From positions 1 to 60,012 of the IMG/VR virus record IMGVR_UViG_3300037099_000042: a stretch of 60,012 nucleotides of DNA; one strand, given 5' to 3'. Position numbers and translations under genes: made by a program. The stretch is from a virus (Duplodnaviria; Caudoviricetes). The notes below the pieces were generated by a model. That model had not been told where the DNA came from and did no database searches. It saw only the letters and a list, made by a program, of their open reading frames with translations. This document shows positions 4,374 through 60,012 of the stretch, one piece after another (position 1 is the first letter of the stretch; each line of letters begins with the position of its first letter).

Positions 4374-5668
4374 GTCAACCACTCGGCCCTAAAGGGCCGA
4401 GCTTGTGAGCAGGGATCACGCGACATGCGCAACCTCTCCCACGATATGCGCGTTGACGGTGCGCACGCCGGAGCCAGTCTTGCCAGCTTCGGCTTGGTAC
4501 TTCCATGCGATATTCCGGGAAGCGTTGAGATCGGCGTTGGCCTCATAGCCGCAGGACCGGCACTTGAACACAGACTGACTTCGCCTGTTGCTCCGGGACG
4601 TGTGCCCGCACTTGCAACACCGCTGGCTCGTCTTGCTCGGGTCAACGGCGACGACCTTATGGCCGGCACCCTCGCCCTTGTATTCGAGGAAGCTGCGGAA
4701 CTGCTCGTAGCTCCAAGAGTGATGGCGCCGGCGTTGTGCGGTGCCACGCTGCTTGGTGCGGCTTCGGATACCCTTGAGGTTCTCAATCACGATCACGCTA
4801 CCCGGTGCCGCGTTCTCAACAATCCTCTTGCTGAGAACGTGGTCGCAATCCCGGCGGAAACGTCCACGACGGCGAGCGATCTTCTTCAAGTGTCGCTTTG
4901 CCGACTTGGTGCCTTTAGCCTGGAGCTTGCGATTGAGCCGGAAGTACCTCTGTTCAATCTCCTTCCAGCGCCGTTCCCCAAGAAATTGGGGCTTGGACGT
5001 AACTGCTGGTCTGTTAATCCCGAGATCGACGCCGATAACGCTACCGCTGGCGACAAACGCGGGGGTTGGAATAGTCAGGACGACATGAAGCCACCACCCG
5101 GACCGGCTGCGCACGAGGTCGGCGATGTCGAAGCCGCTGGCATGGTTGATCAACGCTTGAGCTTGGTCGTAGGCACGGAACGGCAGCTTGATCCGGCCGG
5201 CGACAGTGGACAGGCCAACAACGGCAACTTCCATACGGTAGGACCGCGCGTCATAACGGATGGTGCTATTGCGTGCGGTTGGGACCGATACTGTCTCGCC
5301 CTTCTTCTCAAGGGCTATGGCCGACCGGAGTGCCTCGGTCGCCTTGGTGCGGGCCGAGATCACCAGTTGCGACGGCAGCGTCGGGTGTGCTGCCCTCAAG
5401 GCGTAGTAGGTGGCGTTGTGCAGCGTGACGCCGTTCTTCTCGCGCGTCGGCCAGCCATGCTCGGCGACGGCGTTGAAGCACGCTCGCGACTGCTCGGCCG
5501 TGTCTGCCAGGATCGCGTCCTGTTCGGCCGTTGTCTTGAGCTTGAGGCGGATTGTGCGTTGCATGGATCATATATACATGCTAGGTTCATGTTTGTCAAC
5601 GGCCATGCGCGGAATGGCACGCAATTCCTCCCCGCCCTAAAGGGCCGGGTTTCCTTGCGAGGTGATCA
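4374..5668 (-). mobile_element. Non-autonomous IS200/IS605 (IS1341-type) tnpB-only element, target TCAT
   Basis: Subterminal hairpins CCCGGCCCTTTAGGGCGGGG and CTCGGCCCTTTAGGGCCGAG; right end TGAC; removal restores a 37-aa ORF 5700..4292. Confidence 0.9.
4416..5564 (-). CDS. tnpB: TnpB RNA-guided endonuclease
   Basis: RuvC GVDLG / VIENL / NADLNA motifs and CxxC zinc finger. Confidence 0.95.
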   Translation of the reverse strand: MQRTIRLKLKTTAEQDAILADTAEQSRACFNAVAEHGWPTREKNGVTLHNATYYALRAAHPTLPSQLVISARTKATEALRSAIALEKKGETVSVPTARNSTIRYDARSYRMEVAVVGLSTVAGRIKLPFRAYDQAQALINHASGFDIADLVRSRSGWWLHVVLTIPTPAFVASGSVIGVDLGINRPAVTSKPQFLGERRWKEIEQRYFRLNRKLQAKGTKSAKRHLKKIARRRGRFRRDCDHVLSKRIVENAAPGSVIVIENLKGIRSRTKQRGTAQRRRHHSWSYEQFRSFLEYKGEGAGHKVVAVDPSKTSQRCCKCGHTSRSNRRSQSVFKCRSCGYEANADLNASRNIAWKYQAEAGKTGSGVRTVNAHIVGEVAHVA

Positions 5669-5706
5669 ATGAATAGGGCATTGTAAATAGGCGAATACAT
5701 GGCTCA

Positions 5707-6015
5707 TCAATCTATCTCCCTAACTGCGCAGACGGCTTCATCGACCGACCGCACCACGACGTATTTCCCGCCTGCCCGCTCGAATGCGGCCTGATAGGCG
5801 CGTTGCTGCGCCGATTGCCGGCCCGTCTCGGTTTTGACCTCAATCTCAATCGCTCGGCCCTGATACACCACGGCGATATCGCCCTCTCCGGGCGTGCCGA
5901 ACCGAATGACCCCGGTCGGCGTTTTCGCCACCCCGACGTTCTGGCGCTTGACCAGCGTCCCGGGGATGGCCGAAACGGCGATCAGGCACGCGCGCATGAG
6001 TTCTGTCTCGCTCAC
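5707..6015 (-). CDS. VRR-NUC domain nuclease
   Basis: PGEGDI...IEVKT...GRQSAQQ...GGKYVVVRS; GTG start overlaps the helicase stop. Confidence 0.88.
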   Translation of the reverse strand: MSETELMRACLIAVSAIPGTLVKRQNVGVAKTPTGVIRFGTPGEGDIAVVYQGRAIEIEVKTETGRQSAQQRAYQAAFERAGGKYVVVRSVDEAVCAVREID

Positions 6016-7319
6016 GAAACCACCACGAGATGTTCGCTTGGCCTGGACGCAGCCACGTACAGTAGTTTCAACATTTCGACGCGGTTCCGGTTCTTGCAAA
6101 TATCCACCAAGTCCAGAAAAACCGTTCCAAACGTACTGCCTTGCGACCTATGAACCGTCATCGCATAAACCGGCTGCACGTTTGCATATAACTCTGAGAA
6201 CCAATAAAAAAACGGCCAATACATCCGCTCCTGACGTGCGATGATTTTAACGTCTTCGCACGCATGCGCGAATTTCTCCGCATCGTCTTCATGAATGACG
6301 TTCACAATCCCAGAGATGTCCTCGGATTCCATAAACAGTTCATGAACCGTGAAATTAGGCAACTCTATATCAGGCAACAGAATATCGTGCGGGATTTCAA
6401 TCGACGGCGCATGTAGTCCAGTCCGTATTGATGTAATCACAGCTTCTTCGTCGGTATTAAACAGAATTTTGCTCTTGCCCATCGACATGACGAATGCGGG
6501 CTTGCGGAATAGCAGTCGCTCTCCGACAATAAATCGGTCGGCACTCGGTCCATAGATTTCCTTGCGGACCATGGTGTTGATATTCTCGACGGCGCGGTTA
6601 GTCCAGGCCAAATATCGGAACTGATTGTTATCGTAGCGAAACGCTTCGGACTTGAAACCTTTTAATATCCATTCCCGCGAATTGCCATTAGGCCGATAAA
6701 TCCCAGTTTTGTCCTTGCCTTTTGCCGGGGCGAACACCGACATATCCGGCTTCTCCGCTTCGATCTGTCCACGAAGGGCCGCCGTCAGAGCCATGACCGG
6801 GTTATCGTCTCGCTGGCGCATGATTGCTGACAGGGTGGCTTTTTCTTTAACCTGGAAGGTCTCGGATAGCGTTTCTCCCACTGGTGGTAATTGTTTCGGG
6901 TCACCCACGTAAATAACGCATTTATTCCGCAAATGACGTTGCAGATACACCATGAGTTCAGAGCTAACCATACTACATTCGTCAATTACGATGACGCGAT
7001 ATGCTCCGGAACCGTCTTCGCCTTGTTTCCTCAGGCTACGCTTTTCATTGGAATTACTCGGACGAATTCCCATGAGTTTGTAGATCGTCATGCAATCGCA
7101 GGATAACCCTGCGGCAATTGCTTTCTCGCGTAGAACCTTGATGGCCTTGTTTGTCGGCGCGGTCATCGCGATTTCTGCGCCGAACTGGCGCGCGAACTCG
7201 ACGACAGTGACCGTCTTGCCACAACCGGCAAAACCCTCCAGCACGCACTGGCGATTGGCTGTAGCTACCGAGTTCAGTACGCCGAGAACGGCGCGCTGAT
7301 CGTGCGTGAGGGTGATCAT
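6012..7319 (-). CDS. Dda/RecD-like SF1B helicase
   Basis: GFAGCGKT, APTNKA, IDECSM, VGDPKQLPPV, YAMTVHRSQGST, LYVAASR. Confidence 0.93.
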   Translation of the reverse strand: MITLTHDQRAVLGVLNSVATANRQCVLEGFAGCGKTVTVVEFARQFGAEIAMTAPTNKAIKVLREKAIAAGLSCDCMTIYKLMGIRPSNSNEKRSLRKQGEDGSGAYRVIVIDECSMVSSELMVYLQRHLRNKCVIYVGDPKQLPPVGETLSETFQVKEKATLSAIMRQRDDNPVMALTAALRGQIEAEKPDMSVFAPAKGKDKTGIYRPNGNSREWILKGFKSEAFRYDNNQFRYLAWTNRAVENINTMVRKEIYGPSADRFIVGERLLFRKPAFVMSMGKSKILFNTDEEAVITSIRTGLHAPSIEIPHDILLPDIELPNFTVHELFMESEDISGIVNVIHEDDAEKFAHACEDVKIIARQERMYWPFFYWFSELYANVQPVYAMTVHRSQGSTFGTVFLDLVDICKNRNRVEMLKLLYVAASRPSEHLVVVS

Positions 7320-8227
7320 GCCGAAGCTCCCACTGCATGCTCTGCCCGTTCGCGGGCTCTGAACTCGCGCTCAGTCTTTCTGTCTCGCGTTATTTTTTTG
7401 GGGCCGATTGGAATGTGCTTCCAAGTCACCCTGCGTCGGATGCAACTTATTACCGATCTTGAGACGCCATAACGATCTGCTAAAACAGTTCCGTATTCTT
7501 CGGAATTAAGAATATCGATAACAATACTTTCGCTTAATTTTGCGCTTTGATGCCTTTCTCCGCATATAGAAGACGACTTTCCTTTATTCCATCCAGGCAT
7601 CAGTCCATTAGTATCCCCACGGCCTTTAGAAATCATGTCGATTACATTGTCATGATATGATCCAATGAACAAATGATCGGGATTCACACACGACCTATTG
7701 TCGCATTTATGGCAAACCAGCATACCTTCAGGTATGATTCCAAATGATATTTCATATGACACCCTATGCGCTAGGTACGTCTTATAGTTATGCCCTATAA
7801 CCCCATATCCATTTAAATGACGGCATCCGGCCCATTCCCAGCATCCGGCTCCTTTGTCAACTTTGTTCCAAAATTTGTCAGCTAAAGTCCTTTTCCCGAT
7901 CTTAGGCCATTGGCGGGATTTACGTTGTTCATCAGACAGAGTCCATCTCCCAGCCGATAGGCGATCAGCAATGTTATCGGAATGGCTCCCCGTTGCCAGA
8001 TGACTCGGATTAACACAAGTAGGGTTATGACAAAGGTGGCGCACAATCATTCCTTTCGGAATTTTTCCAAAATGTAATTCCCATGACATTCTATGGGCAA
8101 ACCTCTTGGCCCTGTCTTTACCAATTTTGCCATATCCGTCAAGGTCTCTATATCCCATCCATTCCCAGCATTCTGAATCACTAGCCTTGCTAACATTATT
8201 CCAGAACCTTTCTTCAAAAGTTTTCAT
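7316..8227 (-). CDS. HNH endonuclease with two tandem HNH domains
   Basis: Two CWEW...AHR.S..H.C.N..CVNP.HL units; AT-rich relative to neighbours. Confidence 0.9.
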   Translation of the reverse strand: MKTFEERFWNNVSKASDSECWEWMGYRDLDGYGKIGKDRAKRFAHRMSWELHFGKIPKGMIVRHLCHNPTCVNPSHLATGSHSDNIADRLSAGRWTLSDEQRKSRQWPKIGKRTLADKFWNKVDKGAGCWEWAGCRHLNGYGVIGHNYKTYLAHRVSYEISFGIIPEGMLVCHKCDNRSCVNPDHLFIGSYHDNVIDMISKGRGDTNGLMPGWNKGKSSSICGERHQSAKLSESIVIDILNSEEYGTVLADRYGVSRSVISCIRRRVTWKHIPIGPKKITRDRKTEREFRARERAEHAVGASA

Positions 8228-8242
8228 AATGCGCTTCCTCTC

Positions 8243-9550
8243 GTGAACTACTCGGCCCTAAAGGGCCAAGCTTCAAGCTTCACTGGGGACCGCGCGTCCA
8301 GAAGTCTTGCGGCTTCTCTGGCGACTAACGTCCCCTCCACTTGCAGTGGCCGGAGTCCCTCCGGCCAATATCCGTAGACCTTCGTCACGGATATTCCGAG
8401 CCGCGTTGATGTCCCGATCATGGTGCGCGCCACAATGGGCGCAAGTCCATGATCGAACATCTAACGGCATCTTGTCACAGATGGAACCACAATCGGAACA
8501 AGCCTTTGAACTTGGGAACCAGCGACCGCACTTGACAAACGCTTTGCCAGCACGAGCCGATTTGTATTCCAGGAAGTTCGTTATCATGTTCCAACCAGCA
8601 TCGGCCGTAGCCTTTGCCAGACAGTGGTTGCTCATTATTCCCTTCACATTAAGGTCTTCGACGGCGATTACTTGGTTTTCGCTCACGATCCGTCGAGACA
8701 GCTTGTGGAGGTAGTCTTTGCGAGCGCACGCCACCCGCTCATGTACACGCGCTACTTTCTGGCGGGCTTTATCCCGGTTCTTTGATCCTTTTTTCTTCCG
8801 ACTAAGCGATTGCTGTTTACGCTTCAGGTTCCTTGCGGCTTTCCTGATATGGCGAGGGCTTTCAAACTTCGACCCGTCGCTGGTGACGGCGAGATGAGTC
8901 AGGCCAACATCGATGCCGATTGCCTTCCCGTCAGTCGAGACGGTCGGCATATCCACGCCATCGTCAGTCAAGATCGAGGCATAGAACTGTCCGCAAGCGT
9001 TACGGCTCACAGTTACAGTCTTGAACTTTCCAGCGACTTCACGATGGACGACGCACTTAACCCAACCGACTTTCGGCAGATAGATACGCGCCCCGTTGAT
9101 CTTTACGCGCTGCGGATACTGGATAGACTGTCGCCCATGCTTGGACTTGAACCTGGGATATCGGCCGCGCTTGGCAAAGAAGTTGTCAAACGCGCGAGCG
9201 AGGTTTTGCAACGACTGCTGCAACGCCTGGGAGTCGGCACCCTTAAGCCATTCAAACTCTTGCTTGAGCTTAGGCAGGCGAATCGCCATTGCGTGGTAAT
9301 TCAGGCCCTTGCCTGTGGCGCGGTAGAGTTCCCCGGTCGCGGCAAGGGCGTTATTCCATGCCCACCGCGCGCACCCGAACTGGACGGCCAAGGATTTGGC
9401 CTGCGTGTCGGTCGGGTAGATGCGGATACGGGTGGCGGTCAACATGGCTTAGATATATGGCATCTGCGTCTAAGGGGCAAGTGCTTTCGGCGTTGCCGAA
9501 CGTGCTATTCATCCCCGCCCTAAAGGGCCGGGTTTTACGCACGAGACTGG
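8243..9550 (-). mobile_element. Non-autonomous IS200/IS605 tnpB-only element, target TTAT
   Basis: Same hairpin family as 4374-5668; right end TCAC; removal restores the helicase end KDFMRGSAL* with ATGA overlap onto the HNH gene. Confidence 0.92.
8273..9445 (-). CDS. tnpB: TnpB RNA-guided endonuclease
   Basis: RIYPT HTH start; GIDVG / AVEDL / DRDINAA; zinc finger. Confidence 0.95.
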   Translation of the reverse strand: MLTATRIRIYPTDTQAKSLAVQFGCARWAWNNALAATGELYRATGKGLNYHAMAIRLPKLKQEFEWLKGADSQALQQSLQNLARAFDNFFAKRGRYPRFKSKHGRQSIQYPQRVKINGARIYLPKVGWVKCVVHREVAGKFKTVTVSRNACGQFYASILTDDGVDMPTVSTDGKAIGIDVGLTHLAVTSDGSKFESPRHIRKAARNLKRKQQSLSRKKKGSKNRDKARQKVARVHERVACARKDYLHKLSRRIVSENQVIAVEDLNVKGIMSNHCLAKATADAGWNMITNFLEYKSARAGKAFVKCGRWFPSSKACSDCGSICDKMPLDVRSWTCAHCGAHHDRDINAARNIRDEGLRILAGGTPATASGGDVSRQRSRKTSGRAVPSEA

Positions 9551-10986
9551 ATAAAATCTTTCGCGGCATGCTGAGGCCATCCGCGTTTATAGCCCCGGCT
9601 TCTTGCAATCATTTTTAATCTATCGACTTTACCTCCTGCCCGCTCCAGCAGGGCTCGCCACTCGGCGCCGCTCGCCAGCGCCAGATCGATCCCTCCGGCC
9701 CACGCCAGCGGGTCTTCTCGCTTCGTCAGCCGGCCGCCGACACATTCCGGTGGAGCAATTGGTTCGCCACCGCCTTCGCGCTTCATCGGGCAGTCGTCGC
9801 AGGCTGCGCCGCAGTCCACCGCCTGACCGGCGGGGAAAATCTGGTAGCACTTCTTGCACTGACAGATACTGGCCGCGGTATGGCGTTTTGCCCTGCCATC
9901 GAGCGTCCATGCGCGGGGATCATCCGGCATGCCGAACCGCTCGACGTTTCCGACGTGATCGAGGATCACCGCGCGAGAACCATCGGATTTAGGCCGGAGC
10001 GCACGCCCTACCTGCTGGAGAAACATCGAGAGCGATCGGGTTGGCCGCAGCAAGATCGCCCCGGCGCAAACCGGAATATCGGTGCCCTCAGAAACCACGT
10101 CGCAGGAGGTGAGGACGTTCAGGCGTCCGTCTGCCAGGGCGGCGATACGGTCCCGGCGCGTTGTCCGGTCCATCGCGCCGTCGACCGACGCAGCCCGATA
10201 TCCGGCGGCACGGAATGTCTCGGCGACGTGCTCGGCGTGGGCGACGGTGACGCAGAACGCGAGTGCAGGTCGGCCACCCAGATGATCCCGATAGTGGTCG
10301 ACGGCGTCTCCGGTGATGGTCGCCCGATCCATGGCGTCGGCCAGGTCGCCGATTTTGTAGTCTCCCATGGCGGTTCCGACACCCGAGATATCGGCGATCG
10401 GCGGCGGCGCGAAATAGTCGAACGCGGCGAGATGGCCGGACCCGATCAGCGACCGGACGGACGGCCCGATTACCATGGCGTCGAAAACGTCGCCAAGACC
10501 GCGGCCATCGAGGCGTTCTGGTGTTGCTGTGACGCCGAGTACCTTGGCGGATGACCAGCGGTCCAGGATTTCGAGGTAAGTTTTACTCGGAGAGTGATGA
10601 GCTTCGTCTACAACCATAAGAGTAGGCGCCGCCATGCGATCGAGCCGCCGGCCAACCGTCTGAATCATCGCGACCTGTACCGGATCATCGGTATGCGTCC
10701 TACCCGGCATGATCAATCCATGCTGCACTCCGAACGCATCGAGCGCCCGGCTGATCTGATCGACAATCTCCTGCCTGTGCGCGACAATGGTGACGGTATT
10801 TCCGCGCGATGACGCCCCGAGTGCAATGTATGTCAGAACCACGGTTTTCCCGCTGCCGGTGGGGCTAACCGCCAGCACTCGGCGCTTCCGTGCGCCGAAC
10901 TCGGCGCGGACCCGCTGCACCAGGTCGTCCTGATAGCTGCGGAGTTTGACTCCAGCCATCGCCCCGGACACAATCGTCCCGTCCAT
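9535..10986 (-). CDS. SF2 (DEAH/ResIII-like) helicase; last codons replaced by IS sequence
   Basis: LRSYQ, PTGSGKT, DEAHH, TATP.RLDG, QQVGRALR. Confidence 0.93.
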   Translation of the reverse strand: MDGTIVSGAMAGVKLRSYQDDLVQRVRAEFGARKRRVLAVSPTGSGKTVVLTYIALGASSRGNTVTIVAHRQEIVDQISRALDAFGVQHGLIMPGRTHTDDPVQVAMIQTVGRRLDRMAAPTLMVVDEAHHSPSKTYLEILDRWSSAKVLGVTATPERLDGRGLGDVFDAMVIGPSVRSLIGSGHLAAFDYFAPPPIADISGVGTAMGDYKIGDLADAMDRATITGDAVDHYRDHLGGRPALAFCVTVAHAEHVAETFRAAGYRAASVDGAMDRTTRRDRIAALADGRLNVLTSCDVVSEGTDIPVCAGAILLRPTRSLSMFLQQVGRALRPKSDGSRAVILDHVGNVERFGMPDDPRAWTLDGRAKRHTAASICQCKKCYQIFPAGQAVDCGAACDDCPMKREGGGEPIAPPECVGGRLTKREDPLAWAGGIDLALASGAEWRALLERAGGKVDRLKMIARSRGYKRGWPQHAAKDFIQSRA

Positions 10987-11197
10987 CGGCTAATCCCCCC
11001 ATGGTCGCCGGCGGCACCGGGTTGGCCTGCGAAACTCGCCCGGTGCCGCCGTGTTTTATTATTCCGGCTGTTGCAGCCCAACCCGCGGTTTCCATCGCAC
11101 GCACGGCCTCGACCAGGTTAATGGCCTCGACTTGATCAATTCCAGCAGGGCGGAGCCGATCGATCAGCCGCACCAGGCGCAGTGCGATAGGGGTCAT
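10865..11197 (-). CDS. Hypothetical protein
   Basis: ORF from MTPIAL coupled to the upstream stop; 3' end overlaps the helicase so the extent is uncertain. Confidence 0.35.
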   Translation of the reverse strand: MTPIALRLVRLIDRLRPAGIDQVEAINLVEAVRAMETAGWAATAGIIKHGGTGRVSQANPVPPATMGGLADGRDDCVRGDGWSQTPQLSGRPGAAGPRRVRRTEAPSAGG

Positions 11198-11505
11198 CAC
11201 GGTGCATACTCCAACGTCGGCTTCCCGGTATTCGCCCAATCCCAAATAAACCAAGAAAAATTATGACGCGGCGACGTCTTTGTGTCTGAAAACCACCGCG
11301 GACGTTTAGTCAGAACCAACTTCATCTTAAACACTGGCAAGGTGAAAAGGTCTTTGCGACCGCTCGCGCAGTCCCATTCGTGGCGCAGCAGCATACCGCA
11401 CGAATTGTTCAGCTTTGTCGTATGGCGGATTAGTGATGATAGAAAACATCCCGGAAAAAGCAGGATACGGGTTAGTCCTGAGAAAGTCCGCGGACTCGAT
11501 GACAA
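11197..11505 (-). pseudogene. DNA adenine methyltransferase remnant
   Basis: DFL...IITNPPYDKAEQFVRYA in one frame and MLLRHEWD...RPRW...SPRHNFSWFIWDW in another; N-terminal SAM-binding part absent. Confidence 0.75.
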
Positions 11506-11627
11506 GATCGCGCCAATCGCAACCGCACCCGCCGCAGCCAGTCCTAGAAACCCGACGCACACGGCGACCAGCAGCAGCCCGGTAATCGGCTCGTCTTATG
11601 GGTCGCGCGGTCGGCGCCAGTAGTTGC

Positions 11628-11825
11628 TCATGCTGCTGCGTCTCCCCGGCATTCCGCACACACGCGGTCCTGCCCGCGCTGGGCAACGGTCTCGACGGTC
11701 AGGCCGCAGGAAATGCGGCATCCGCTGTTGCGCAGACGGTCGATTGTGCGAGCGAACTCGTCGACGCAGGACGAACCGGCGGGACCGCCGCATTCGTCGC
11801 GGGCTAGGCAAGGTTGGCAGGTCAT
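11628..11825 (-). CDS. Small Cys-rich hypothetical protein
   Basis: GAAAGGA RBS; CxxC motifs; ATGA overlap with the next ORF. Confidence 0.5.
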   Translation of the reverse strand: MTCQPCLARDECGGPAGSSCVDEFARTIDRLRNSGCRISCGLTVETVAQRGQDRVCAECRGDAAA

Positions 11826-12039
11826 GAGGCGTTTCCTTTCAAGGTTAGGGAATGGGTAGGGGATTGGGATTGGCGTATGCACTCTCAAGACGCGACCGCT
11901 CGGCATCCCGCCCATCGGGAGTCCCCTGGCTCTGGTGGGAAGTGGCGTCGGGGGCCGGTACTGCGTCCGTGGTGGACCCCGCCCCGGCCGGCGGGCGGTA
12001 TCTGATAGCGTGCGCGGAGCACGGGATTGTAGTTGCTGG

Positions 12040-12978
12040 TCATTCGCATAAACCGTAGCTGCTGGAGCAGAGCGGCGCCGGGACGGACTTCAGCAGATCG
12101 TATTGTACCCCCCCCCTCGAAGTCTTGGCCCACTCGACCATGGTGCGGATATTGGAGTGCTGGAAAGCATGCTCGTCATCGCCTCCATCGGCACCGGCGT
12201 GGTGCAGCAGCGTCGATCGGCCCCGCTTACTCGCCGATCCGACCAGCCGCTCCCACTCGGCCACTCGCTCAACTTCGGCCGGGAACCGCTTGGCGATTTC
12301 GTGTAACTCGTCCTTGGCGACGTTAATGCAGGGCATGCAGCCGACGCGGCGCATGCCGAGCGAATAGAGCGGATTTAGACGCACGCCGCGGGAGCGGATG
12401 AACTTAACCACCTCATTGGCGGTCCACGCCGCGATGGGCCGCTCGATCCACCAGCCCTCGGCGCTAAACTCCCGATCCAGCGCGTCGGCGCGATTTCGGC
12501 TCTCGTCGCGTCGGATGCCCTGCCAGGACTCCGGCGTCTGGCCGGCGGCCATCAAATCGAGCATGCGCGCATCGAGCGGCCGGCGCTTCAGCTCCTGGGT
12601 GCAGAACTGCGCCATCCGGCTCGGGAAGCGCCCCTTCATCATGCACAAATCAAGAAACGGAACGCCGGTCGGGTGAAGAACCGCAATGGCGCGCGCGCAG
12701 ACATCGGCAGGGACGCCTTTGCCAGGCCATTTCTCGGCGATGTACCGGCGCTTGCGCTCCATGTCGGCCGTGAAGTCGGCCTTCACCGTCTCGACCCTGA
12801 CGCCGAAATCATCCTGGAAGGCACCAAACAGATATTCGAGGGTCAACGGCGATTCGTGCCCAGTGTCCGCGAACACGAACCGGCAGCGGTCACGGCCAAA
12901 GCGGTCCAGCGCCAGCAAAGCAGTCGCGGTGCTGTCCTTGCCACCGGAGACGGAGACGACGGCGATCGGGTCGGCCAT
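12040..12978 (-). CDS. PAPS reductase family (PP-loop) protein
   Basis: SVSGGKDS, FADTGHE, CTQELK, GIRRDESRNRA, RVGCMPC, C-terminal CSSSYGLCE. Confidence 0.9.
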   Translation of the reverse strand: MADPIAVVSVSGGKDSTATALLALDRFGRDRCRFVFADTGHESPLTLEYLFGAFQDDFGVRVETVKADFTADMERKRRYIAEKWPGKGVPADVCARAIAVLHPTGVPFLDLCMMKGRFPSRMAQFCTQELKRRPLDARMLDLMAAGQTPESWQGIRRDESRNRADALDREFSAEGWWIERPIAAWTANEVVKFIRSRGVRLNPLYSLGMRRVGCMPCINVAKDELHEIAKRFPAEVERVAEWERLVGSASKRGRSTLLHHAGADGGDDEHAFQHSNIRTMVEWAKTSRGGVQYDLLKSVPAPLCSSSYGLCE

Positions 12979-12981
12979 CCC

Positions 12982-13296
12982 TCAGCACTCCACGCCGTCG
13001 ACATCGTCACCGTCGCTCGGCGGAATGTAATCGGCCGGCGCATCGATCACGGTCGGCTGGCAGTCTGGTGATGGCGCATGGGGGCATTCCGCAGTCTGGC
13101 GCTCGAAGAGAACGTCATCAAGTTGGACGCCTTTCGCAGCCGCCAGCTTGGAGAGCCGCGGGATGTGGCGAGTTGGAATGGCACCGCGAGTTTTCCATAC
13201 CCAGATCATATTGGGACCAACGCCCAAGGCATTCGCCAGGGATTGGCGCCCTCCGAGTTCCGTGACCAGCCGGTCAATGTGCGTGATCGTTTCCAT
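12982..13296 (-). CDS. Cro-like HTH transcriptional regulator
   Basis: LGGRQSLANALGV...WKTRGAIP; first gene after a promoter/operator. Confidence 0.75.
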   Translation of the reverse strand: METITHIDRLVTELGGRQSLANALGVGPNMIWVWKTRGAIPTRHIPRLSKLAAAKGVQLDDVLFERQTAECPHAPSPDCQPTVIDAPADYIPPSDGDDVDGVEC

Positions 13297-13301
13297 GCCC
13301 T

Positions 13302-13331: not shown

Positions 13332-13348
13332 GCTCGTTTTTGTCCAGT

Positions 13349-14185: not shown

Positions 14186-14244
14186 GATGCTTGCTCCTAT
14201 CGACGCCAGCCCATCGGCTGGCTATGTCGCACCATAACAAGAAA

Positions 14245-50321: not shown

Positions 50322-51646
50322 GCCCGCGCTATGACGCTGGGCGAAATTGTCATTGCGGCCTTGGTTCCGAGCATTGCGAAGGCGCCGCTTACAGCGTCCA
50401 CTTGGTCATCGTGGGCCGCTTGCGGGAATGCCTCGATCTCATCGAGGAACGCGCCGCACCACGTACCCCGCACCAGCCGGACATTTCCACGCTCGGCGGC
50501 GGCGGATACTGGTCGCGCCATCGTGGTTTTATCGCCTGTCTTTTTATCGCCCTTAAAGTCGAACCCAACTAGAACCCGGCGAGCGTAGTGGTCGATCATG
50601 CCGACGCCAGACGATCCCGGCTCTTGTTCCATCCGAATTGGAATGCCGCGCCCGTCTATGTCTGCGGTTTGTCGAATAACAGCCTCGATCTTCTGCGGTG
50701 TGCCACGGAGCCGGATGATGTCCTCAACAAACCATATCCCGTCTTTGACCGTAACCTTAGCCCCGACTGTCCAGTCTGGGTCTTTTCCGGGGGCGGCAGC
50801 GGTCGCGGCCAAATCCCAGTAGCGCAGTGACCGCCCGCCGGATGGCGCGGCATTGACGATCTCGAACCACTCCCGCTCGAATAAGCCGCCGCAGGGCAGC
50901 ACGTCCCAATCGCCATTGAGCAGCTGCGCGCGGGTCAGGTGGTCAAGTTGATCGAGTGAGCGTCGGTACTCTGCTTGGTCCAGGCCGGGGTTGTCTTCCA
51001 GCCGTGCGGGGATGAACGGTCGGCCCTTGTCGCGGCCCTCGACCACGAACCGCTGCCGAACCCACTCATGGCCGTGTCCGCCGGGGTTACTGGCTAGCCG
51101 GGCGCGGAGCGGAACCTGGACGCCGGCTTTGCGGCGCAGGCGTGATAGCAAGTAGCGGTACTGGCTCTCGCTGAACTGTGTTGCTTCGTCAATGCCGATG
51201 AACTGGAGTTCCGCGCCTTGGTAGCGGTATTTGTCCTTTTCGGTTTCCAGATATCCAAAATTGATGGTCGCTCCCGATGGGAATGACCACTGCTTGTCTT
51301 GAGCGTTCCACTTGGCGTCACTGCCTGCGAGCCATTGCTCGGCGCGATCCATCAAAGCGCCCGGCAATGCCAGATCAGCGTAAGTTCTGCGAAGCAAAAG
51401 AGCGGAATAACCGGGGACGTGGACGTATTGCAGCGCTGCCATAAGCAGACATTCCGACTTACCACCGCCGGCCGCTCCTCCGTAAAGCGCCTCCAGATGC
51501 GGCAGTGCCAGGAACGCCAGTTGCGGCGGAAACGGTTTATTCGGGCAGTATTTAGTCAGTACCGCCGGAGTCTTTACTATCAAACCCAATGCCTGTTGCG
51601 GCGAGAATCTGGGCCGCTCTGGCGGCTGTTCCGGCGTCCACAACAT
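50318..51646 (-). CDS. terL: Terminase large subunit
   Basis: YGGAAGGGKS, IDEATQF, ASNPGG.GH.WV, WDLA, HDDQVDA. Confidence 0.93.
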   Translation of the reverse strand: MLWTPEQPPERPRFSPQQALGLIVKTPAVLTKYCPNKPFPPQLAFLALPHLEALYGGAAGGGKSECLLMAALQYVHVPGYSALLLRRTYADLALPGALMDRAEQWLAGSDAKWNAQDKQWSFPSGATINFGYLETEKDKYRYQGAELQFIGIDEATQFSESQYRYLLSRLRRKAGVQVPLRARLASNPGGHGHEWVRQRFVVEGRDKGRPFIPARLEDNPGLDQAEYRRSLDQLDHLTRAQLLNGDWDVLPCGGLFEREWFEIVNAAPSGGRSLRYWDLAATAAAPGKDPDWTVGAKVTVKDGIWFVEDIIRLRGTPQKIEAVIRQTADIDGRGIPIRMEQEPGSSGVGMIDHYARRVLVGFDFKGDKKTGDKTTMARPVSAAAERGNVRLVRGTWCGAFLDEIEAFPQAAHDDQVDAVSGAFAMLGTKAAMTISPSVIARA

Positions 51647-51998
51647 GGTGCGTTAGTTCCATTTTCATAGCCGGGGCCTCATCGCTGCCCCCATGGCGTA
51701 GCTCTGTCGGTGCTTCTTTCCAGCGGGCGCGGGTCTTGAGCCAGAAGATCTGCGCCGCGACGTTGTTGCTGTCAACGGCGTTCTTGTAGAGCGCTCCCGC
51801 CACCCGCGCGTTTGCCTTGGTCGTCCCGGTGTCCAGCTCATGGCGGAAGTTGTCCGCCAGCGTCTGCTCGTCGATCTTCCGGCCCGATTCGGGATTGATG
51901 ATCATGGCGCAGATGTCGGCCTGGGGGATGCCATAGGCAGATAGCTGCTCGACCAACTTCCGGTGCTCAGGGGTGGGGCGAAAGGGTTTGCGGGCCAT
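51552..51998 (-). CDS. terS: Terminase small subunit
   Basis: PTPEHRKLVE..., AQIFWLKTRARWKE; directly upstream of terL. Confidence 0.75.
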   Translation of the reverse strand: MARKPFRPTPEHRKLVEQLSAYGIPQADICAMIINPESGRKIDEQTLADNFRHELDTGTTKANARVAGALYKNAVDSNNVAAQIFWLKTRARWKEAPTELRHGGSDEAPAMKMELTHHVVDAGTAARAAQILAATGIGFDSKDSGGTD

Positions 51999-52141: not shown

Positions 52142-52842
52142 TCACCGGCCGGCATTCTTGATCTCATCGAACGTGCGGCCATCGCCTTCGAGTGTTGCGG
52201 TCTGGCCGGTAAAGTCCTGCCAGCGCTTGCATGCTACGTCGACGTAAGCCGGGTTCAGTTCCACGGCGTAAACGCAGCGGCCAGTCATTTCCCCAGCGAT
52301 GATCGTCGTGCCGGAACCGCTGAACGGTTCATATACCGCTTGACCGGGACTGCTGTTGTTCTCAATCGGGCGTTTCATGCACTCGATGGGCTTTTGAGTG
52401 CTGTGCCCAGTCTCGGACTTCTGCGGCTTGGGGATTTGCCAGAGCGTCGTTTGCTTGCGGTCGCCGCAATAGTGGCCTGAAATCCGGTAAGCGACAGATC
52501 GAAGTCGCAAGCGGCAAGCTCGCCCAACTCCAGCGCCAGCAGCTCGTCGTCCCACTCAGCCCAGTTTGCCGACTTGTTCGCCAGCAGGCGGAACGCTTTG
52601 ATCTGGGCATCGGTCAAGTCGTCGGCAAGCGCAACGGGGACAGTCTCCAGTCCGAGCTTCCTTGCTTCCTTTAATCGCAAGTGTCCGTCTACAACAGAGC
52701 CATCAGATTTCGCGACGATTGGAATGCGGAAGCCGAACTCGCGGATGGCAGAGCACATCTTGTCAACAACGGCGTCGTTCTTGCGCGGATTCCGAGCGTA
52801 GTCAATAAGACTATCTGTGTGCACATTTTTAACAATGAGCAT
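52142..52842 (-). pseudogene. ParB-like/N6-N4 DNA methyltransferase with internal deletion and frameshift
   Basis: ParBc part (YARNPR, DGHLRL) joined out of frame at ~52480 to the MTase C-terminus (HSTQKP, EPFSGSGTT); no DPPY region. Confidence 0.85.
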
Positions 52843-53590
52843 TTATCCGAGCCTTTATTACCGTAGCAGTTACCATAGCGCGTTCCATCAACATAGCGCC
52901 CAATGCCACTTTCATATCCTGGCAACTTGATCCGGTTGACTCAATGTCATGAGTTATTGACTCGACAAACTTGTGATGCTTTATACATAAAGTTATTAGA
53001 TTTTGCTGACTATTATCAAAACTAAGTCTAAATGGTGCTATATGATGGACCTGCAATAATTTCGTTGTTCCGCACATTGCGCAAAATGGCATACGCTTTT
53101 TTGCTTTTAATCTTATCTTGTTCCACTGTGACCCACGGCCAGTTATTCTGTCTGTCTGGCACATCCAGTTTTCATAGCATGGTCTGCTGCAAAAATTACC
53201 TTCGGCATTCGTATTTGCGCCTATAGAACTCTTGTAGACATCAAACTGTTTCAAGCAGTGCTTGCATTGACGATTTTCATGTGTGTTAGCGTGTCTACAT
53301 TCTAATGAGCAAAACTTCTGCCCAAGAGATGCCCGCATCATCTTTCCACACTCCGCGCAGGATACTTGATCGGATCGAACAGACCCCTTTCCCGATCTCC
53401 CTCCACGACTGCTTGCGCACCTTCTGCAAACTACTGGGTTAGTGTCGCGTCGCACTGTGGAAATTATCCCACAATCGGCACATACACAGTTTTTCATCCC
53501 ATTCTTGCGTTGTGCTTTACTAAGATGCAGCAACTCATGTCCGGGGATTGCGCGCCACTCTTCGTCAGGTGTATAGGAATCGTCAGCCAT
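52829..53590 (-). CDS. HNH endonuclease with Cys-rich repeats
   Basis: C..CG...LQVHH...N....NLITLC.KHH; FCS..C repeats; AT-rich. Confidence 0.8.
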   Translation of the reverse strand: MADDSYTPDEEWRAIPGHELLHLSKAQRKNGMKNCVCADCGIISTVRRDTNPVVCRRCASSRGGRSGKGSVRSDQVSCAECGKMMRASLGQKFCSLECRHANTHENRQCKHCLKQFDVYKSSIGANTNAEGNFCSRPCYENWMCQTDRITGRGSQWNKIRLKAKKRMPFCAMCGTTKLLQVHHIAPFRLSFDNSQQNLITLCIKHHKFVESITHDIESTGSSCQDMKVALGAMLMERAMVTATVIKARINAHC

Positions 53591-54801: not shown

Positions 54802-55497
54802 TTAACGTATTTCACGGATTTGCAGCGGCGTCAATGAGATTTTTGTGCCGTTCCGATATTTTTTTGGACTGATTGACACCACCACGCGGGGCTTCGGCCG
54901 CCGTGACATGACGGCGATCACGGTGTCGACCCCTGACAGCAGCGCCGTCTTCACCCGGTCGGCGTCGGGGTTGGCGCCCGCCACGAACCCCAACAGGGCC
55001 GGTGGAACCACGTCGTCGAGACACACGCTCTCCAGCACCGAAATCGCCAGACCACACAGAGGCAACCGGTGCAGCGCGCCCATAACCGCTGACATCCGGT
55101 CATCGCAGGCGCGCCACGCGTCCTCGGACAGATCGGCGCCCGTCGGTGCGACCTCGGGATGCCACCGCCGAGACCCCGACATCGCCGACCAGGTCACCCA
55201 CAGCGTCCGATATGCCGACAGCGCATCCCGCCGCTTCCTGCCATCACCGTCCCGATAGCCGAGCAGCCCGCGCACCCAGAGCGCATCGATCGCCGTCGCG
55301 GCCTCTTGCCCCGGAGCCAACCCGAGCCGCGCCCGCTGTTGCTCGATCGTCTGTGGCAGGATCACCGGCCCGCGATCGGCCACCTGGATGCGGCGCGCGA
55401 CCGAGCCGTCGGGCTGGCGGTCGACGTTAGCGCGGCGTTTCCGGCCGGAGCGGCGTTTCGCCATGCTGCTGGATTTGGTTTTTTTGGTCTCTGTCAT
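54802..55497 (-). CDS. Hypothetical protein, possible late transcription regulator
   Basis: Basic N-terminus; last gene before the packaging region; GGGGAGGG RBS. Confidence 0.55.
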   Translation of the reverse strand: MTETKKTKSSSMAKRRSGRKRRANVDRQPDGSVARRIQVADRGPVILPQTIEQQRARLGLAPGQEAATAIDALWVRGLLGYRDGDGRKRRDALSAYRTLWVTWSAMSGSRRWHPEVAPTGADLSEDAWRACDDRMSAVMGALHRLPLCGLAISVLESVCLDDVVPPALLGFVAGANPDADRVKTALLSGVDTVIAVMSRRPKPRVVVSISPKKYRNGTKISLTPLQIREIR

Positions 55498-56065
55498 GCT
55501 GTTTCCCTCCCCATATCTGCCCGCTGAGTACGATCCCAGACACAAACAGCTTTCCTCCAGTTATCAGGGTGTTCCTGGAAACGCCATTTGGCCCGCTTTT
55601 ACGTATCGCCTCATATGTCGTCATGAGATATTCCGGCACGGTGGATTTCGACGGCGCTGGCAATGCTCGGGACTGCGCGGCAAGCGCCTTACGGACAGCG
55701 CGATCGATCATTTCGTCGATTTGCAGCGACGGGGCATTCGGAGCCTCGAACCGCCCGGTCTTGCGGATGGCTGGGAGAACGTCGTGGGTCACGAACCGCT
55801 GGAACGGCTTGGCTTGAGGCTTGTCCGAGCGCATGACGAGGCGCCACATGCCGGGCTCGGAAATGATGTTGGCCTCGCGTTCGCCCCTGTTCCCCTGAAT
55901 TGAGGTTAGGGCGCGCTCATCGGCGTCGAGCGTCATAATCGCCTTCGTTGGATTCTCAAGGTCCAGAACCGCGCAGACATCGGCGGCCACGAACCACGGC
56001 TCGCCATCCACCTGGATGACGCGTACAGGTTTTCCTTCGTACTCAAACGGTATGATGCTTGGCAT
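55427..56065 (-). CDS. Bro-N domain antirepressor-like protein, C-terminus probably truncated
   Basis: GEPWFVAADVC.VL, ISEPG...LV.RS.KP.AK.F..FVT.DVLP.IRKTG. Confidence 0.9.
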   Translation of the reverse strand: MPSIIPFEYEGKPVRVIQVDGEPWFVAADVCAVLDLENPTKAIMTLDADERALTSIQGNRGEREANIISEPGMWRLVMRSDKPQAKPFQRFVTHDVLPAIRKTGRFEAPNAPSLQIDEMIDRAVRKALAAQSRALPAPSKSTVPEYLMTTYEAIRKSGPNGVSRNTLITGGKLFVSGIVLSGQIWGGKQHDRDQKNQIQQHGETPLRPETPR

Positions 56066-56297
56066 TGCTTTGGTCTCCGTTGAGGCCGGTGCTGGCACGC
56101 GCCCGGCACGACAACAGGAGGTCAATTTCTCGACCACCGGCCCCAACGAAGCGAGGAAACTGGTGGTCGTGCTTCAGGTCGTCCGGTGCCAGCCGAACCT
56201 CCTTTGCATACCACACCCTGGCCCCTCGGAAAACACCTATCCCACCTACCCGACCGCGGCGTCAACATGCTGTTTCCCTCCCCATATCTGCCCGCTG
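55495..56297. repeat. 32-bp perfect direct repeat (55495-55526 and 56266-56297) flanking the Bro cassette
   Basis: CATGCTGTTTCCCTCCCCATATCTGCCCGCTG occurs twice. Confidence 0.92.
56066..56205 (-). ncRNA. C4-like structured antisense/leader RNA upstream of the Bro gene
   Basis: Same architecture as 1141-1285 with compensatory changes. Confidence 0.65.
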
Positions 56298-56992: not shown

Positions 56993-57134
56993 CTCAACGA
57001 TTTTATGTTTTTTCTGCCAAGCACGGTTGGCCGCCTGACCCGAACCGGTATCACGGACCACGCCCCGGAGAAAGGGGGAAAATACCTACGCCGTGAACAC
57101 TCCGTCGGCTAAAGCCGGCGGCTTCTGTGACAAG

Positions 57135-58280
57135 TTATGCGGCAACCCGCTGACTTGACGCCACAAGGCCCGCTCCAGGCCCCTGAAAGTTAGGAAAGCC
57201 ACGATGCAGTATGTTCAAGGCAGCGTTGACATCGCGATCCAACACCAGCCCGCATTCAGGGCAGTGGTGGGTTCGCGTTGCCAGCGTTTTCTTGACGATA
57301 GTACCGCACTCGGAGCATTCTTGGCTCGTTCTGCGCGGGTCAACCAACTCGACTATCCCACCAGCATATTCTGCTTTGTAGGTCGTCATGAAGATCAACT
57401 GATTCCACGCAGCATTATGAACAGACTTGGCAAGCATGCCGCTCGCAAGCCCTTTGATGTTCAAGTCCTCAAACGCGATATGCGTAAACTCGTCTGCAAG
57501 CCTGTTGGACAGCTTGTGCAAAGAGTCGCGGCGACGATTGGCGATCTTGCTCTGGTATCGCGCGACAACCTTCTTGGCTCGCTTCCAGCCCTTGGAGAAC
57601 CGCTTGCAACGAGCCAGCGCGCGCTGACGGCGACGAAGTCCTTTGGCTGCGGTCTTGGTGATCTGCGGCGTCGGCACTGTTTCCCCGTTAGACAGAGCCA
57701 CCAAGGAAGTCAGGCCGACATCAATGCCCACCGGATTGACGGCCCGCTCTGCAACCTCGGCCTCGGGCCGTTCAAGTTGGAAACAGATGTACCAGCGGCC
57801 AGCGGATCGCGAGAGGACCGCAGCAACCGGCTTGGTCGGAAGTTCCCGGTGCCACTTGACCTTGATCTCTCCAGGAATGCCGACGATGCCGATTTTTCCG
57901 GACTTGCGGATCGTCAGGCCGTCACCAACGCGGAAATCGGCGCTGTCATAGCGGGACTTCGACCGGAACCTCGGGTACCCGGCTTTTTTGGTGGTCTTAA
58001 CACGACGAAAGAACGCCTTGAACGATTTGTCCAGTCTGCGGAGAACCTGCTGTTCAGTCGAAAACCCGTACTTCACCAAGCGGTCATCGGCAAGCCTGAC
58101 AGCTTTCAACTCGTTGGCCTGGTCGGCATAGCTGAGAGACTTTCCCTGACGCCGATAAGCCTCAATGCGCTGCTGCAGTCCGGCATTGTAGAGGTCGCAA
58201 AAAGCCCCCAGCATCTCGTCCAGAGCAGCCTGCTGCGCTCCGTTCGGTCGAATCAGATACTTGTAAGACCGGATTGCCAC
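57135..58280 (-). CDS. tnpB: TnpB RNA-guided endonuclease
   Basis: GIDVG / AFEDL / DRDVNAA; zinc finger. Confidence 0.95.
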   Translation of the reverse strand: MAIRSYKYLIRPNGAQQAALDEMLGAFCDLYNAGLQQRIEAYRRQGKSLSYADQANELKAVRLADDRLVKYGFSTEQQVLRRLDKSFKAFFRRVKTTKKAGYPRFRSKSRYDSADFRVGDGLTIRKSGKIGIVGIPGEIKVKWHRELPTKPVAAVLSRSAGRWYICFQLERPEAEVAERAVNPVGIDVGLTSLVALSNGETVPTPQITKTAAKGLRRRQRALARCKRFSKGWKRAKKVVARYQSKIANRRRDSLHKLSNRLADEFTHIAFEDLNIKGLASGMLAKSVHNAAWNQLIFMTTYKAEYAGGIVELVDPRRTSQECSECGTIVKKTLATRTHHCPECGLVLDRDVNAALNILHRGFPNFQGPGAGLVASSQRVAA

Positions 58281-58283
58281 AGG

Positions 58284-58685
58284 CTATTTGCCCTTCTGGT
58301 TCTTGATATATTGCGTAATAGCTTCTTCGGAAACGCCACCAATCGATGCAGCAAAGTAACTTCTGCTCCAGAGAGTTGGAAGCCGGGACCGGAGACCTGG
58401 AAATTCCTGTCTCAGTATTCTGCTGCTCCTGCCCTTGAGGCGGTTAACTATCTCTGCGACACTGAGCGTCGGATCGGCTTCGACAAACACATGAACATGA
58501 TCTGGCATGACTTCCATTGCGTGGATCATCATGCTGTGTTCAGCGGCAACCTCGCACATCAGTTCCTTCAGCCTCGCGTCGATTGGGCTCACCAGCACGC
58601 TGCGCCGATATTTTGGGCACCAAACGATGTGAAACTTCAGGGAAAAGACTGCCCCAACGTTCTTTCTGTACCTTGGCTCTGACAT
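58284..58685 (-). CDS. tnpA: IS200/IS605 Y1 transposase
   Basis: HIVWCPKYRR, MPDHVHVF, LWSRSYF, YIKNQ. Confidence 0.95.
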   Translation of the reverse strand: MSEPRYRKNVGAVFSLKFHIVWCPKYRRSVLVSPIDARLKELMCEVAAEHSMMIHAMEVMPDHVHVFVEADPTLSVAEIVNRLKGRSSRILRQEFPGLRSRLPTLWSRSYFAASIGGVSEEAITQYIKNQKGK

Positions 58686-58795
58686 AAGGAGAGATATATG
58701 CTTGACGGAAGGATAACGCAAGAGGTATCTTTGCCCTACGGGCAACCGGCATTCCGCCGTCGCCTGAAGGCGACGGTCCCCAGCCGGAGGTCATG

Positions 58796-59010
58796 ATGGG
58801 TTTTGCCGAAAACCGATCGATGACCCACTGCGAAACCTTTGCCGCGAACGATGGGCTGCACCACTGTCCGAGGTTGACGGCGACGTAAGGATGAACAAAG
58901 GTGCCCTGCCTCTGAGCCGCGCCACCCTGAACGGTCTGGACGATTTCCGTTATGGGAATCCCCATAACGCTCGATATCTCGTCCAGGAACGCATTGGTAC
59001 TGGAAAGGCG
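58796..59010 (-). pseudogene. KilA-N domain gene, 3' fragment between two IS elements
   Basis: RLSSTNAFLDEISS...QGTFVHPYVAVNLGQWCSPSFAAKVSQWV. Confidence 0.85.
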
Positions 59011-60012
59011 CCGTTCTTCCAGACTTGCTCAAACCTACGCATAGGTAGGTTTGACGCTGGATTTCTGCTTCACTGAGGCTGGTTTCGTGGCCGGCTTGCG
59101 CCGACCGCCAGAGCCTTCCTCTCCACAGGCTGACACCGTGGAACTCACGGCCAATTTCACGAGGTTCTTCGCCGCGTTCACGTCCCGATCGTGAGCGCGG
59201 CCACAGGCCGGACAAGTCCACTCTCGCACCGACAGCGGCAAGACTTCCATCTTGTATCCACATGTCGAACAGGTCTTGCTCGAAGGGTACCAGCGGTCCG
59301 CCACGATAATCCGGGCACCGTTCAGCTTGGCCTTGTACTCGATCTGCCGCCGGAACTCATGCAAACCCACATCGGCGATGGCCCTTGATAGTTTATCATT
59401 CGCCATCATGCCCCGCACGTTCAAGTCTTCGATCACGATGACGCCGTGGTTTTTGGCTATCGCCGTGGTCGCTTTGTGCGTAACATCATTGCGGATATTG
59501 CCGATGCGGGCGTGTAATCGGGCTATCTTCAATTTGGCCTTGCGCCGATTGCTCGATCCCTTGACCTTGCGGGACAGGGCGCGAGAAGCCCGACGAAGTT
59601 TCTTCAGGTTCTTGCGCAGCGCCTTCGGGCCTTCGATGACGCTGCCGTCGCTCAAGGTCGCCAGTGCCTTGACACCGAGATCAACACCAACCGCCGGTCC
59701 TTGGTTTTCGGACACGGCACGATCGGGCCTCTCGACCTGGAGACTGACGAACCAACGATCGGCGGTACGCGACACCACCGCCGACTTGACCTGACCGGCA
59801 AAGCGCAACGGCTCGCGCATCCGCACCCAACCGATCACCGGCAAACGAACGCGCTTGCCGTCAACGGCAACCGCATCAGCACCTCTAATTTGGGGGCCGT
59901 TGTCAGCCCGGAAACTGTCGTGCATACCCTTCTTCTTAAACTTCGGAAACTTAGCCCGCCCCTCGAAGACGTTTTTGAACGCCATTCCCAGATTCTTGAT
60001 TGCCTGTTGCGG
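59011..60012 (-). mobile_element. IS607-family element, right part
   Basis: Ends ...GAGCAAGTCTGGAAGAACGG, after which the KilA-N frame resumes. Confidence 0.88.
59035..60012 (-). CDS. tnpB: IS607 TnpB, C-terminal part
   Basis: GVDLG / VIEDL / DRDVNAA; zinc finger. Confidence 0.93.
   Translation of the reverse strand, partial: PQQAIKNLGMAFKNVFEGRAKFPKFKKKGMHDSFRADNGPQIRGADAVAVDGKRVRLPVIGWVRMREPLRFAGQVKSAVVSRTADRWFVSLQVERPDRAVSENQGPAVGVDLGVKALATLSDGSVIEGPKALRKNLKKLRRASRALSRKVKGSSNRRKAKLKIARLHARIGNIRNDVTHKATTAIAKNHGVIVIEDLNVRGMMANDKLSRAIADVGLHEFRRQIEYKAKLNGARIIVADRWYPSSKTCSTCGYKMEVLPLSVREWTCPACGRAHDRDVNAAKNLVKLAVSSTVSACGEEGSGGRRKPATKPASVKQKSSVKPTYA

Follow-up and report, generated by a model that had tools for sequence, protein, structure and literature searches.

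How does a tailed phage come to carry five different TnpB nucleases, and what might these do to related phages that lack them? The DNA analysed here, referred to as the window, is 60,012 nucleotides long and is the whole of one virus record (IMG/VR record IMGVR_UViG_3300037099_000042; Duplodnaviria, Caudoviricetes). It contains five insertion sequences (IS), named T1 to T5, each of which carries a tnpB gene. Our favoured reading, to which we assign a probability of about 0.65, is that a complete tailed-phage genome has been invaded five separate times by selfish IS of five lineages, whose TnpBs would cut alleles free of the IS. The first 127 bases of the window are repeated exactly at its end (59886-60012 is a copy of 1-127), and in its classification the record has direct terminal repeats and a completeness of 100%. 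The unique genome therefore measures 59,885 bp and is either closed as a circle or circularly permuted.

Five IS elements and their nucleases

The ends of the elements were read from the sequence and then located. Four of the five are of the IS200/IS605 type. T1 (4374-5668, minus strand; 1,295 bp) is IS1341-like and T2 (8243-9550, minus strand; 1,308 bp) has the same content: neither contains a transposase gene, and their TnpBs, of 382 and 390 amino acids, are encoded at 4416-5564 and 8273-9445 on the minus strand. T3 (20785-22578, plus strand; 1,794 bp) is IS605-type, with a Y1 transposase gene, tnpA (20825-21361, minus strand; probable start 21307), divergent from tnpB (21306-22547, plus strand; 413 amino acids, probable start 21348). 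T4 (57093-58795, minus strand; 1,703 bp) is IS608-like, its Y1 tnpA (58284-58745, minus strand; probable start 58685) lying upstream of tnpB (57135-58280, minus strand; 381 amino acids) in the same direction, which is also the order in IS608 of Helicobacter pylori. Both Y1 transposases match PF01797 over the full profile (E 2.5e-40 for T3 and 1.8e-42 for T4) and have the HVH (HUH) and QY(V/I) motifs.

The fifth element, T5, is IS607-type (minus strand; 1,902 bp in total) and crosses the 127-bp terminal overlap, that is, the junction of the record. The 3' portion of tnpB, with its stop at 59035, lies in the right part (59019-59885) together with a right end whose last bases are TCTGG, and the left part (1-1035) contains the 5' portion of tnpB (GTG at 349; 399 amino acids in total) and a short left end. 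The serine-recombinase tnpA occupies 346-984 on the minus strand and can be read as 346-1140, an in-frame fusion with a fragment of the gene into which T5 has inserted. Its product matches Resolvase (E 1.6e-20) with an N-terminal MerR domain (E 5.9e-16), and its stop overlaps the GTG start of tnpB, which is the IS607 arrangement. The preliminary description of this DNA, made from the sequence alone, had confined the elements to 4374-59885, a range that leaves out the left 1,035 bp of T5 together with its tnpA. Its count of one IS607 and four IS200/IS605 elements, making up about 8 kb or 13% of the phage, agrees with our figures (8,002 bp, or 13.4% of 59,885).

Seven candidates in the record were scored against PF07282, and five of them, the TnpBs of T1 to T5, matched above the curated cut-off (E 3.6e-23 to 7.4e-25; PF01385, E 5.1e-09 to 2.5e-31), T1 giving the weakest value for both profiles (3.6e-23 and 5.1e-09). 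All five frames are open over 381-413 codons. In a five-way alignment the Asp, Glu and Asp columns and both CxxC zinc-ribbon pairs are kept in every protein, so that the RuvC D-E-D triad first described for all five TnpBs is indeed present. The TnpB of T2 aligns over 368 residues with the solved TnpB of ISDra2 (8bf8/8exa; E 4.4e-75), and D191, E278 and D361 of the ISDra2 chain, which we take to be the RuvC catalytic residues, fall on D179, E263 and D345 of T2 when counted along the alignment. The proteins of T3, T4 and T5 also match ISDra2 TnpB (E 1.7e-44, 7.7e-45 and 2.3e-51, respectively). For T1, the best solved relatives are Cas12f-type chains (8hr5, E 5.3e-24; 8hr5, 8j12 and 7wju, all with E of about 1e-23); an ISDra2-like chain, 9yyg, gives E 1.3e-12 and 8bf8 is absent from the matches. 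Judged by sequence, T1 TnpB may sit in the TnpB branch nearest to Cas12f. Pairwise identity among the five proteins is 23.1-38.8% (25% between T1 and T2), and the elements have only short DNA blocks in common, which argues for five lineages acquired separately and not for copies of one another. All five are intact genes for predicted RNA-guided nucleases.

Two of these genes lie opposite long antisense open frames, one of 415 codons (4425-5672, plus strand) against T1 tnpB and one of 492 codons (57204-58682, plus strand) against tnpB and tnpA of T4. Neither has a Pfam match, and both may be chance frames in DNA of 56-61% G+C, although a translated antisense frame in an Anabaena tnpB has been reported in a 2026 preprint.

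Element ends and the guide-pairing rule

Published passages on IS608 place its cleavage sites 19 nt 5' of the foot of the left hairpin and 10 nt 3' of the foot of the right one. There, the four bases 5' of each foot read the cleavage site (with pairs A+16:T-3 and A+17:T-4), the sequence pairs being AAAG/TTAC for the left guide (GL) and GAAT/TCAA for the right guide (GR). The left ends of T1 to T4 obey the same rule. Their guides GAAA, AAAA, CAAA and GGGA predict the targets TC.T, TT.T, TG.T and CC.T, and all four were found, 18-20 nt from the hairpin foot, as had been claimed from the start. At the right ends, the guide CAAG of T1 predicts TG.C and its terminus, TTGAC, fits; the guide GAAG of both T2 and T4 predicts TC.C and their termini, TTCAC, fit as well. 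The rule therefore fits seven of the eight ends of T1 to T4, and the exception is the right end of T3, which breaks it at the fourth position. Apart from this end, the differences from IS608 lie in the tetranucleotides and in the spacing (in T1 to T4, 18-20 nt at left ends and 8-9 nt at right ends, vs 19 and 10).

T2 relatives from bacterial and archaeal genomes served as a control set. Scanning of 54 loci gave 41 candidate right ends; two that had been wrongly cut were dropped and one was corrected, leaving 39, in which a hairpin was placed in 29 and none was called in 10. As many as 27 of the 29 obey the pairing between right guide and right cleavage site (GAAG with TCAC in 16, and GAAT or GATT with TCAA in 11), and by eye the remaining two are cases of a misplaced hairpin foot. 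This indicates that the fourth position truly covaries in the family and that the right end of T3 is the odd one.

The right-end hairpin of T2 has compensatory changes in 12 of its 14 predicted pairs among 18 aligned sequences, and the last 150 nt fold better than shuffled versions in T1, T2 and T5 (z-scores -2.95, -4.44 and -2.23). It should be noted that the right-end hairpin doubles as a site for TnpA, so that neither covariation nor folding is proof of an RNA. A 14-base hairpin core is present five times, at each end of T1 (left 5633-5646, right 4385-4398, minus strand) and of T2 and at the right end of T3, whereas 0.37 matches would be expected by chance. Apart from a block of 32 nt at the left end (93.8% identity) and one of 31 nt at the right end (90.3%), T1 and T2 have nothing in common. 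Near-identical end blocks around unlike nucleases, in elements that have no transposase, are most simply explained by the same TnpA acting on both in trans.

The IS200/IS605-type elements resemble ISDra2 of Deinococcus radiodurans in having subterminal hairpins and right ends of the GTTCAC kind and in inserting 3' of a short motif that is left unduplicated. They differ from it in the motif (TTAT, TCAT, TGAT and CCAT here vs TTGAT, the target of ISDra2), in the absence of tnpA from T1 and T2, and in residing in a phage. In the literature, TTGAT is reported for an element related to ISDra2, and a +1 pairing is reported in ISDra2.

For T5 the closest comparison is CboIStron, an IS607-family element. 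According to the report on it (PMC10690162, Zedaveinyte et al., preprint), its transposase uses TGGG as insertion site and strictly requires no more of it than GG, TGGG is also the target-adjacent motif (TAM) of its TnpB, and the omegaRNA scaffold ends in UCGG. T5 likewise has a serine recombinase with a MerR helix-turn-helix followed by tnpB, GG at both junctions (left flank AATGGG followed by TTTTT; right end GTCTGG followed by AAGAAC) and TGGG at its left end. Its right end finishes in TCTGG where the CboIStron scaffold finishes in UCGG. Unlike CboIStron, T5 rejoins its interrupted gene one base off frame, and no group I intron was seen in it, although none was searched for.

Insertion sites, a wild empty site and the carrier phage

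The five flanking motifs are those given in the preliminary description, and all insertions lie, as it stated, outside the structural module. T1 follows TCAT (5669-5672, minus strand) in an intergenic spacer, 35 nt past the stop of a VRR-NUC-like open reading frame (ORF) at 5707-6099 (a weak Pfam match, E 0.0038) and before an ATG at 4292. T3 follows TGAT (20781-20784, plus strand), which overlaps the TGA stop of a small Cys-rich ORF; the insertion is one base past this stop and one base ahead of an ATG at 22580. Both T1 and T3 are therefore intergenic and not inside ORFs. T2 and T4 have each taken the place of a gene's last few codons. The motif of T2, TTAT (9551-9554, minus strand), lies within the last codons of a helicase gene (9535-10986), and that of T4, CCAT (58796-58799, minus strand), is two codons from the end of a KilA-N gene. 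The same KilA-N gene is hit a second time by T5, which follows TGGG (1036-1039, minus strand) and splits the KilA-N domain. The 5' fragment of this gene, 35 codons, lies at 1036-1140 on the minus strand; its continuation is at 59018-58796 and its end at 57092-57084. The 3' fragment matches the Pfam profile at positions 39-102 (E 3.7e-09), and the 5' fragment gives a weak match, below the cut-off, to the beginning of the profile (E 0.01).

By analogy with known TnpBs, the 16 nt beyond each right end would serve as the omegaRNA guide and match the target in an IS-free allele. These putative guides lie at 4358-4373 (T1, minus strand; unique in the genome), 8227-8242 (T2, minus strand), 22579-22594 (T3, plus strand; covering the ATG at 22580), 57077-57092 (T4) and 59003-59018 (T5). 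From work on ISDra2, ISGst and CboIStron we infer that each TnpB would read the TnpA target flanking its element as its TAM.

The same phage is held by seven peat-metagenome runs (0.92-0.97 of sampled words), and more distant forms of it by freshwater runs (0.47-0.49 of sampled words); in all, the phage was found in whole or part in 19 of the 20 rows listed, which came from 14 studies. Contigs of four runs were compared with positions 3500-23400, among them the peat runs X3 and X5, from two studies, and the freshwater run X10, from a study other than those of the peat runs. An X10 contig of 311 nt (depth 7.9) joins 8242 directly to 9551, thereby skipping exactly the predicted 1,308 bp of T2, with no letters between, no ambiguous bases and the TTAT motif retained. 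It has one difference from the window over 8093-8242 (150 nt) and nine over 9551-9711, all at or beyond 9635; the single difference in 8093-8242 may or may not fall in the 16-nt T2 target. T2 is thus present in some related phages and absent from another, and its insertion was precise, without target duplication. In the rejoined site the helicase gene ends seven codons further on, with a stop overlapping the ATG of the next gene, and the insertion has exchanged these codons for five from the left end of T2. Loose contig ends at 5660 and 8364 were considered as empty sites as well and were rejected, since both positions fall within elements and the contigs agree with further members of these IS families that occur in the samples. 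The search for IS-free relatives with the predicted empty sites, proposed in the preliminary description, thus succeeded for T2; it yielded none for T1 and T3, where the near-absence of X10 cover makes this uninformative, or for T4 and T5, which lie outside 3500-23400.

The gene that follows the T2 site encodes a free-standing HNH endonuclease (7316-8227, minus strand; PF13392, E 2.7e-27), which is directly downstream of the site and is not part of the IS. In the IS-free allele its start overlaps the stop of the helicase gene (ATGA), so that T2 sits exactly between these two genes, and the putative T2 guide spans this overlap. A second HNH endonuclease gene is found at 52829-53590 on the minus strand.

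The phage is tailed, with a large terminase subunit (50318-51646), small terminase (51552-51998), portal (48813-50321), sheath-like DUF3383 protein (39832-42000) and SLT-domain protein (36766-38772). The non-structural part is a replication and accessory region with PrimPol, two helicases, Rha/ANT and anti-repressor genes, a ParB-like nuclease, methyltransferases and the two HNH endonucleases. The nearest terminases of cultured phages are only about 50% identical to that of this phage. A PrimPol query found one locus in IMG/VR (30% identity) and three among JGI metagenome contigs (best 63% over 60 residues), none of them a close relative of the phage, and a helicase query of IMG/VR found 53 loci with at most 59% identity over part of the protein and 51% over most of its length. 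When the T2 TnpB was compared with 185,579 species genomes, at least 422 relatives were present among 600 stretches listed; the best of the matches listed, from metagenome-assembled genomes of cyanobacteria, was 56% identical, and no host could be named from these relatives.

Several other features of the genome were noted. The gene block at 14700-16650 consists of 12- and 18-nt repeats rich in Gly, Asp and Tyr codons on both strands (families D1-D5, D11 and D14) and varies in length across runs: contigs skip 305, 964 or 1,534 nt, and every assembly breaks there. Over 1,230 nt at 11846-13075, including a PAPS-reductase-like gene (12040-12978), the X10 relative has 86 other letters, an exchange of accessory genes unconnected with the IS elements. 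A tRNA-Leu gene (anticodon TAA) is located at 17168-17253 on the plus strand, and contigs of X5, X9 and X10 match from 17175 on and differ before it; the contigs most likely hold other tRNA-Leu genes, although an attachment site at this position is conceivable. Finally, 1260-1321 is repeated at 56182-56243 (79% over 62 nt), and 55495-55526 is identical to 56266-56297 over 32 nt; these repeats (families D16 and D20), found near the PrimPol start and the anti-repressor-like genes, may be shared regulatory sites.

Competing explanations and significance

On the favoured reading, the IS605-type elements would enter as single-stranded circles, 3' of the tetranucleotide that pairs with their left guide, and T5 would enter by serine recombination at the GG of TGGG. 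T1 and T2 would probably depend on a TnpA supplied in trans by T3 or the host. All five landing sites would be tolerated ones, with T1 and T3 in intergenic spacers, T2 and T4 each in the closing codons of a gene, and T5 in a KilA-N gene that is dispensable. By analogy with characterized systems, each TnpB would load an omegaRNA from its own right end that reads into the flank, and the complex would cut genome copies of the phage in which motif and flank are joined, that is, the IS-free allele. Such an allele could arise through excision by TnpA or come with a co-infecting relative, and the element would be restored or spread when this allele recombines with IS-bearing genomes of the replicating pool. 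That the elements, above all T1 and T2, do persist and spread in this way as RNA-guided homing elements between co-infecting phages, converting or excluding IS-free relatives at up to five loci, is a tentative proposal that we consider rather doubtful. The likeness to phage homing endonucleases of the SegF and I-TevI type would lie in the cut of the element-free allele of a co-infecting relative and its repair from the element-bearing genome; the difference is that recognition there is by protein, whereas here it would be by a putative guide RNA and a motif of 4-5 nt.

A number of observations weigh against this reading. The right guide of T3, GAAT, predicts TCAA (TC.A) and the actual terminus is GTCAC; the hairpin at this end is degenerate, with two changes relative to that of T1 and T2, and T3 may have lost the ability to excise. 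The last 150 nt of T3 (z-score +0.76) and T4 (-0.62) fold no better than shuffles, and Rfam at its gathering thresholds found only tRNA, with no family match at the element ends. All runs with the phage are DNA and no row is recorded as RNA. Empty-site evidence concerns T2 only: X10 depth is near zero at T1 and T3, T4 and T5 lie outside the compared region, and no close relative usable for empty sites was found in IMG/VR, JGI metagenome contigs or GTDB species genomes. In X3 and X5 only the IS-bearing form was seen, though contigs drop rare variants. The canonical rejoining of T5 (flank-GG-flank) leaves the KilA-N gene one base short of frame. With one extra base at the joint, a clean KilA-N gene of 111 codons results that ends two codons past the T4 site, so that either one G of the G run was lost after the gene had been inactivated or the T5 boundary is off by one; the register of TAM and guide relative to the IS-free allele is therefore uncertain for T5. 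Thus, two statements in the preliminary description need narrowing. That the empty sites rejoin sensibly holds exactly for T2, as the X10 contig demonstrates, and fails by one base for T5. That the phage could cleave IS-free relatives at five loci is overstated: T3 has a right end that looks degenerate and T5 a site one base off.

Part of the same evidence would suit passive passengers, that is, IS that hopped from the IS pool of the host into tolerated sites, with inconsequential TnpBs and a T2 polymorphism that reflects a recent insertion or a precise excision. We regard this as possible but unlikely. Every insertion is at a neutral place (intergenic, in last codons or in a dispensable gene), T1 and T2 are without transposase, the right end of T3 looks decayed, the runs are of DNA alone, and published remarks describe IS as rare in phage genomes and disadvantageous to phages. 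However, open frames with intact catalytic residues would be unexpected in five long-neglected genes, five distinct lineages imply that the accumulation was repeated, and the IS-bearing form has been assembled in several peat runs of different studies.

A further possibility is that the phage has recruited one or more of the TnpBs as weapons and retains them for its own advantage in marker exclusion or interference competition, where IS-free relatives would be cut much as by intron-borne and free-standing homing endonucleases; we consider this quite improbable. In its favour, a natural relative has the T2 empty site with TTAT, two HNH endonuclease genes have been kept, one of them beside the T2 site, and TnpB density is high, with five in 60 kb, whereas of the 57 loci that surround homologous replication genes in other viral and metagenome contigs (831 kb in all) only one has a TnpB homologue. 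(This single homologue, L046:146-1240, is 39.7% identical to that of T5.) Co-infected phages are also listed as theoretical targets of transposon homing in a 2026 review. On the other hand, a benefit to the phage is indistinguishable from one to the element, guides are set by the flanks as in any IS, and the IS-free relative comes from another habitat (freshwater vs peat), with no evidence of co-infection.

An assembly artefact, either a chimera through repeated IS copies, a danger raised in the preliminary description, or a false circular closure inside the IS607 element, is highly improbable: although the 127-bp terminal overlap falls within T5 tnpB and the X3 contig over 3500-14805 begins, by record coordinates, some 2,491 nt before 3500, near 1009 and close to the left boundary of T5, the five elements have no long repeat (the longest common block is 82 nt at 78%), the X3 and X5 contigs cover 3500-14805 and 16524-23400 (X3) or 16528-23400 (X5) with no differences and cross T1, T2 and T3, they break in the Gly-rich repeat region and not at an IS, the X5 contig would, by its length and the record coordinates, reach some 3,866 nt past 3500 and so across the boundary of T5 and the record origin, and the KilA-N fragments on either side of T5 fit one Pfam profile end to end.

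How new, then, is such a phage? TnpB in phages is known, relatives of T2 being present in 605 of 50,697 phage records at 836 places, and single TnpB copies have been discussed for cyanophages. Several TnpBs in one small viral genome are not new either: in the Acidianus two-tailed virus (NC_007409; 62,730 bp), four frames of 385-459 amino acids match PF07282 with scores that exceed the cut-off, and three of them are annotated as transposases. Unlike the present phage, that virus is archaeal, with hosts of another realm, and has four elements and not five. The motifs, too, are mostly familiar: within the tested sets that we could consult, TTTAT and TTCAT are five-base TAMs that contain TTAT and TCAT, TGGG has been tested as a TAM in its own right, and CCAT is the one motif that looks less usual. 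To speak of a 'natural panel of TAM-diverse editors', as was done at the outset, is therefore too strong, and the phage offers no new kind of nuclease and adds little to the TAM catalogue. What is unusual is the load, five lineages that take up 13.4% of a complete phage genome, together with a wild IS-free allele.

The phage thus bears a heavy load of a well-known kind of selfish element. Homing of transposon nucleases into co-infecting phages is in print as theory, with support for plasmids only in the available part of the 2026 review, and we found no experimental report of TnpB homing between phages in the literature searched. An IS-free allele with the T2 recognition motif does exist in the population, as represented by the freshwater contig. 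If the homing proposal is true, these elements would be a guide-RNA counterpart of phage homing endonucleases, situated in the replication and accessory region, and five intact TnpB elements with a wild empty site for T2 make this phage a convenient natural system in which to test RNA-guided homing between phages.

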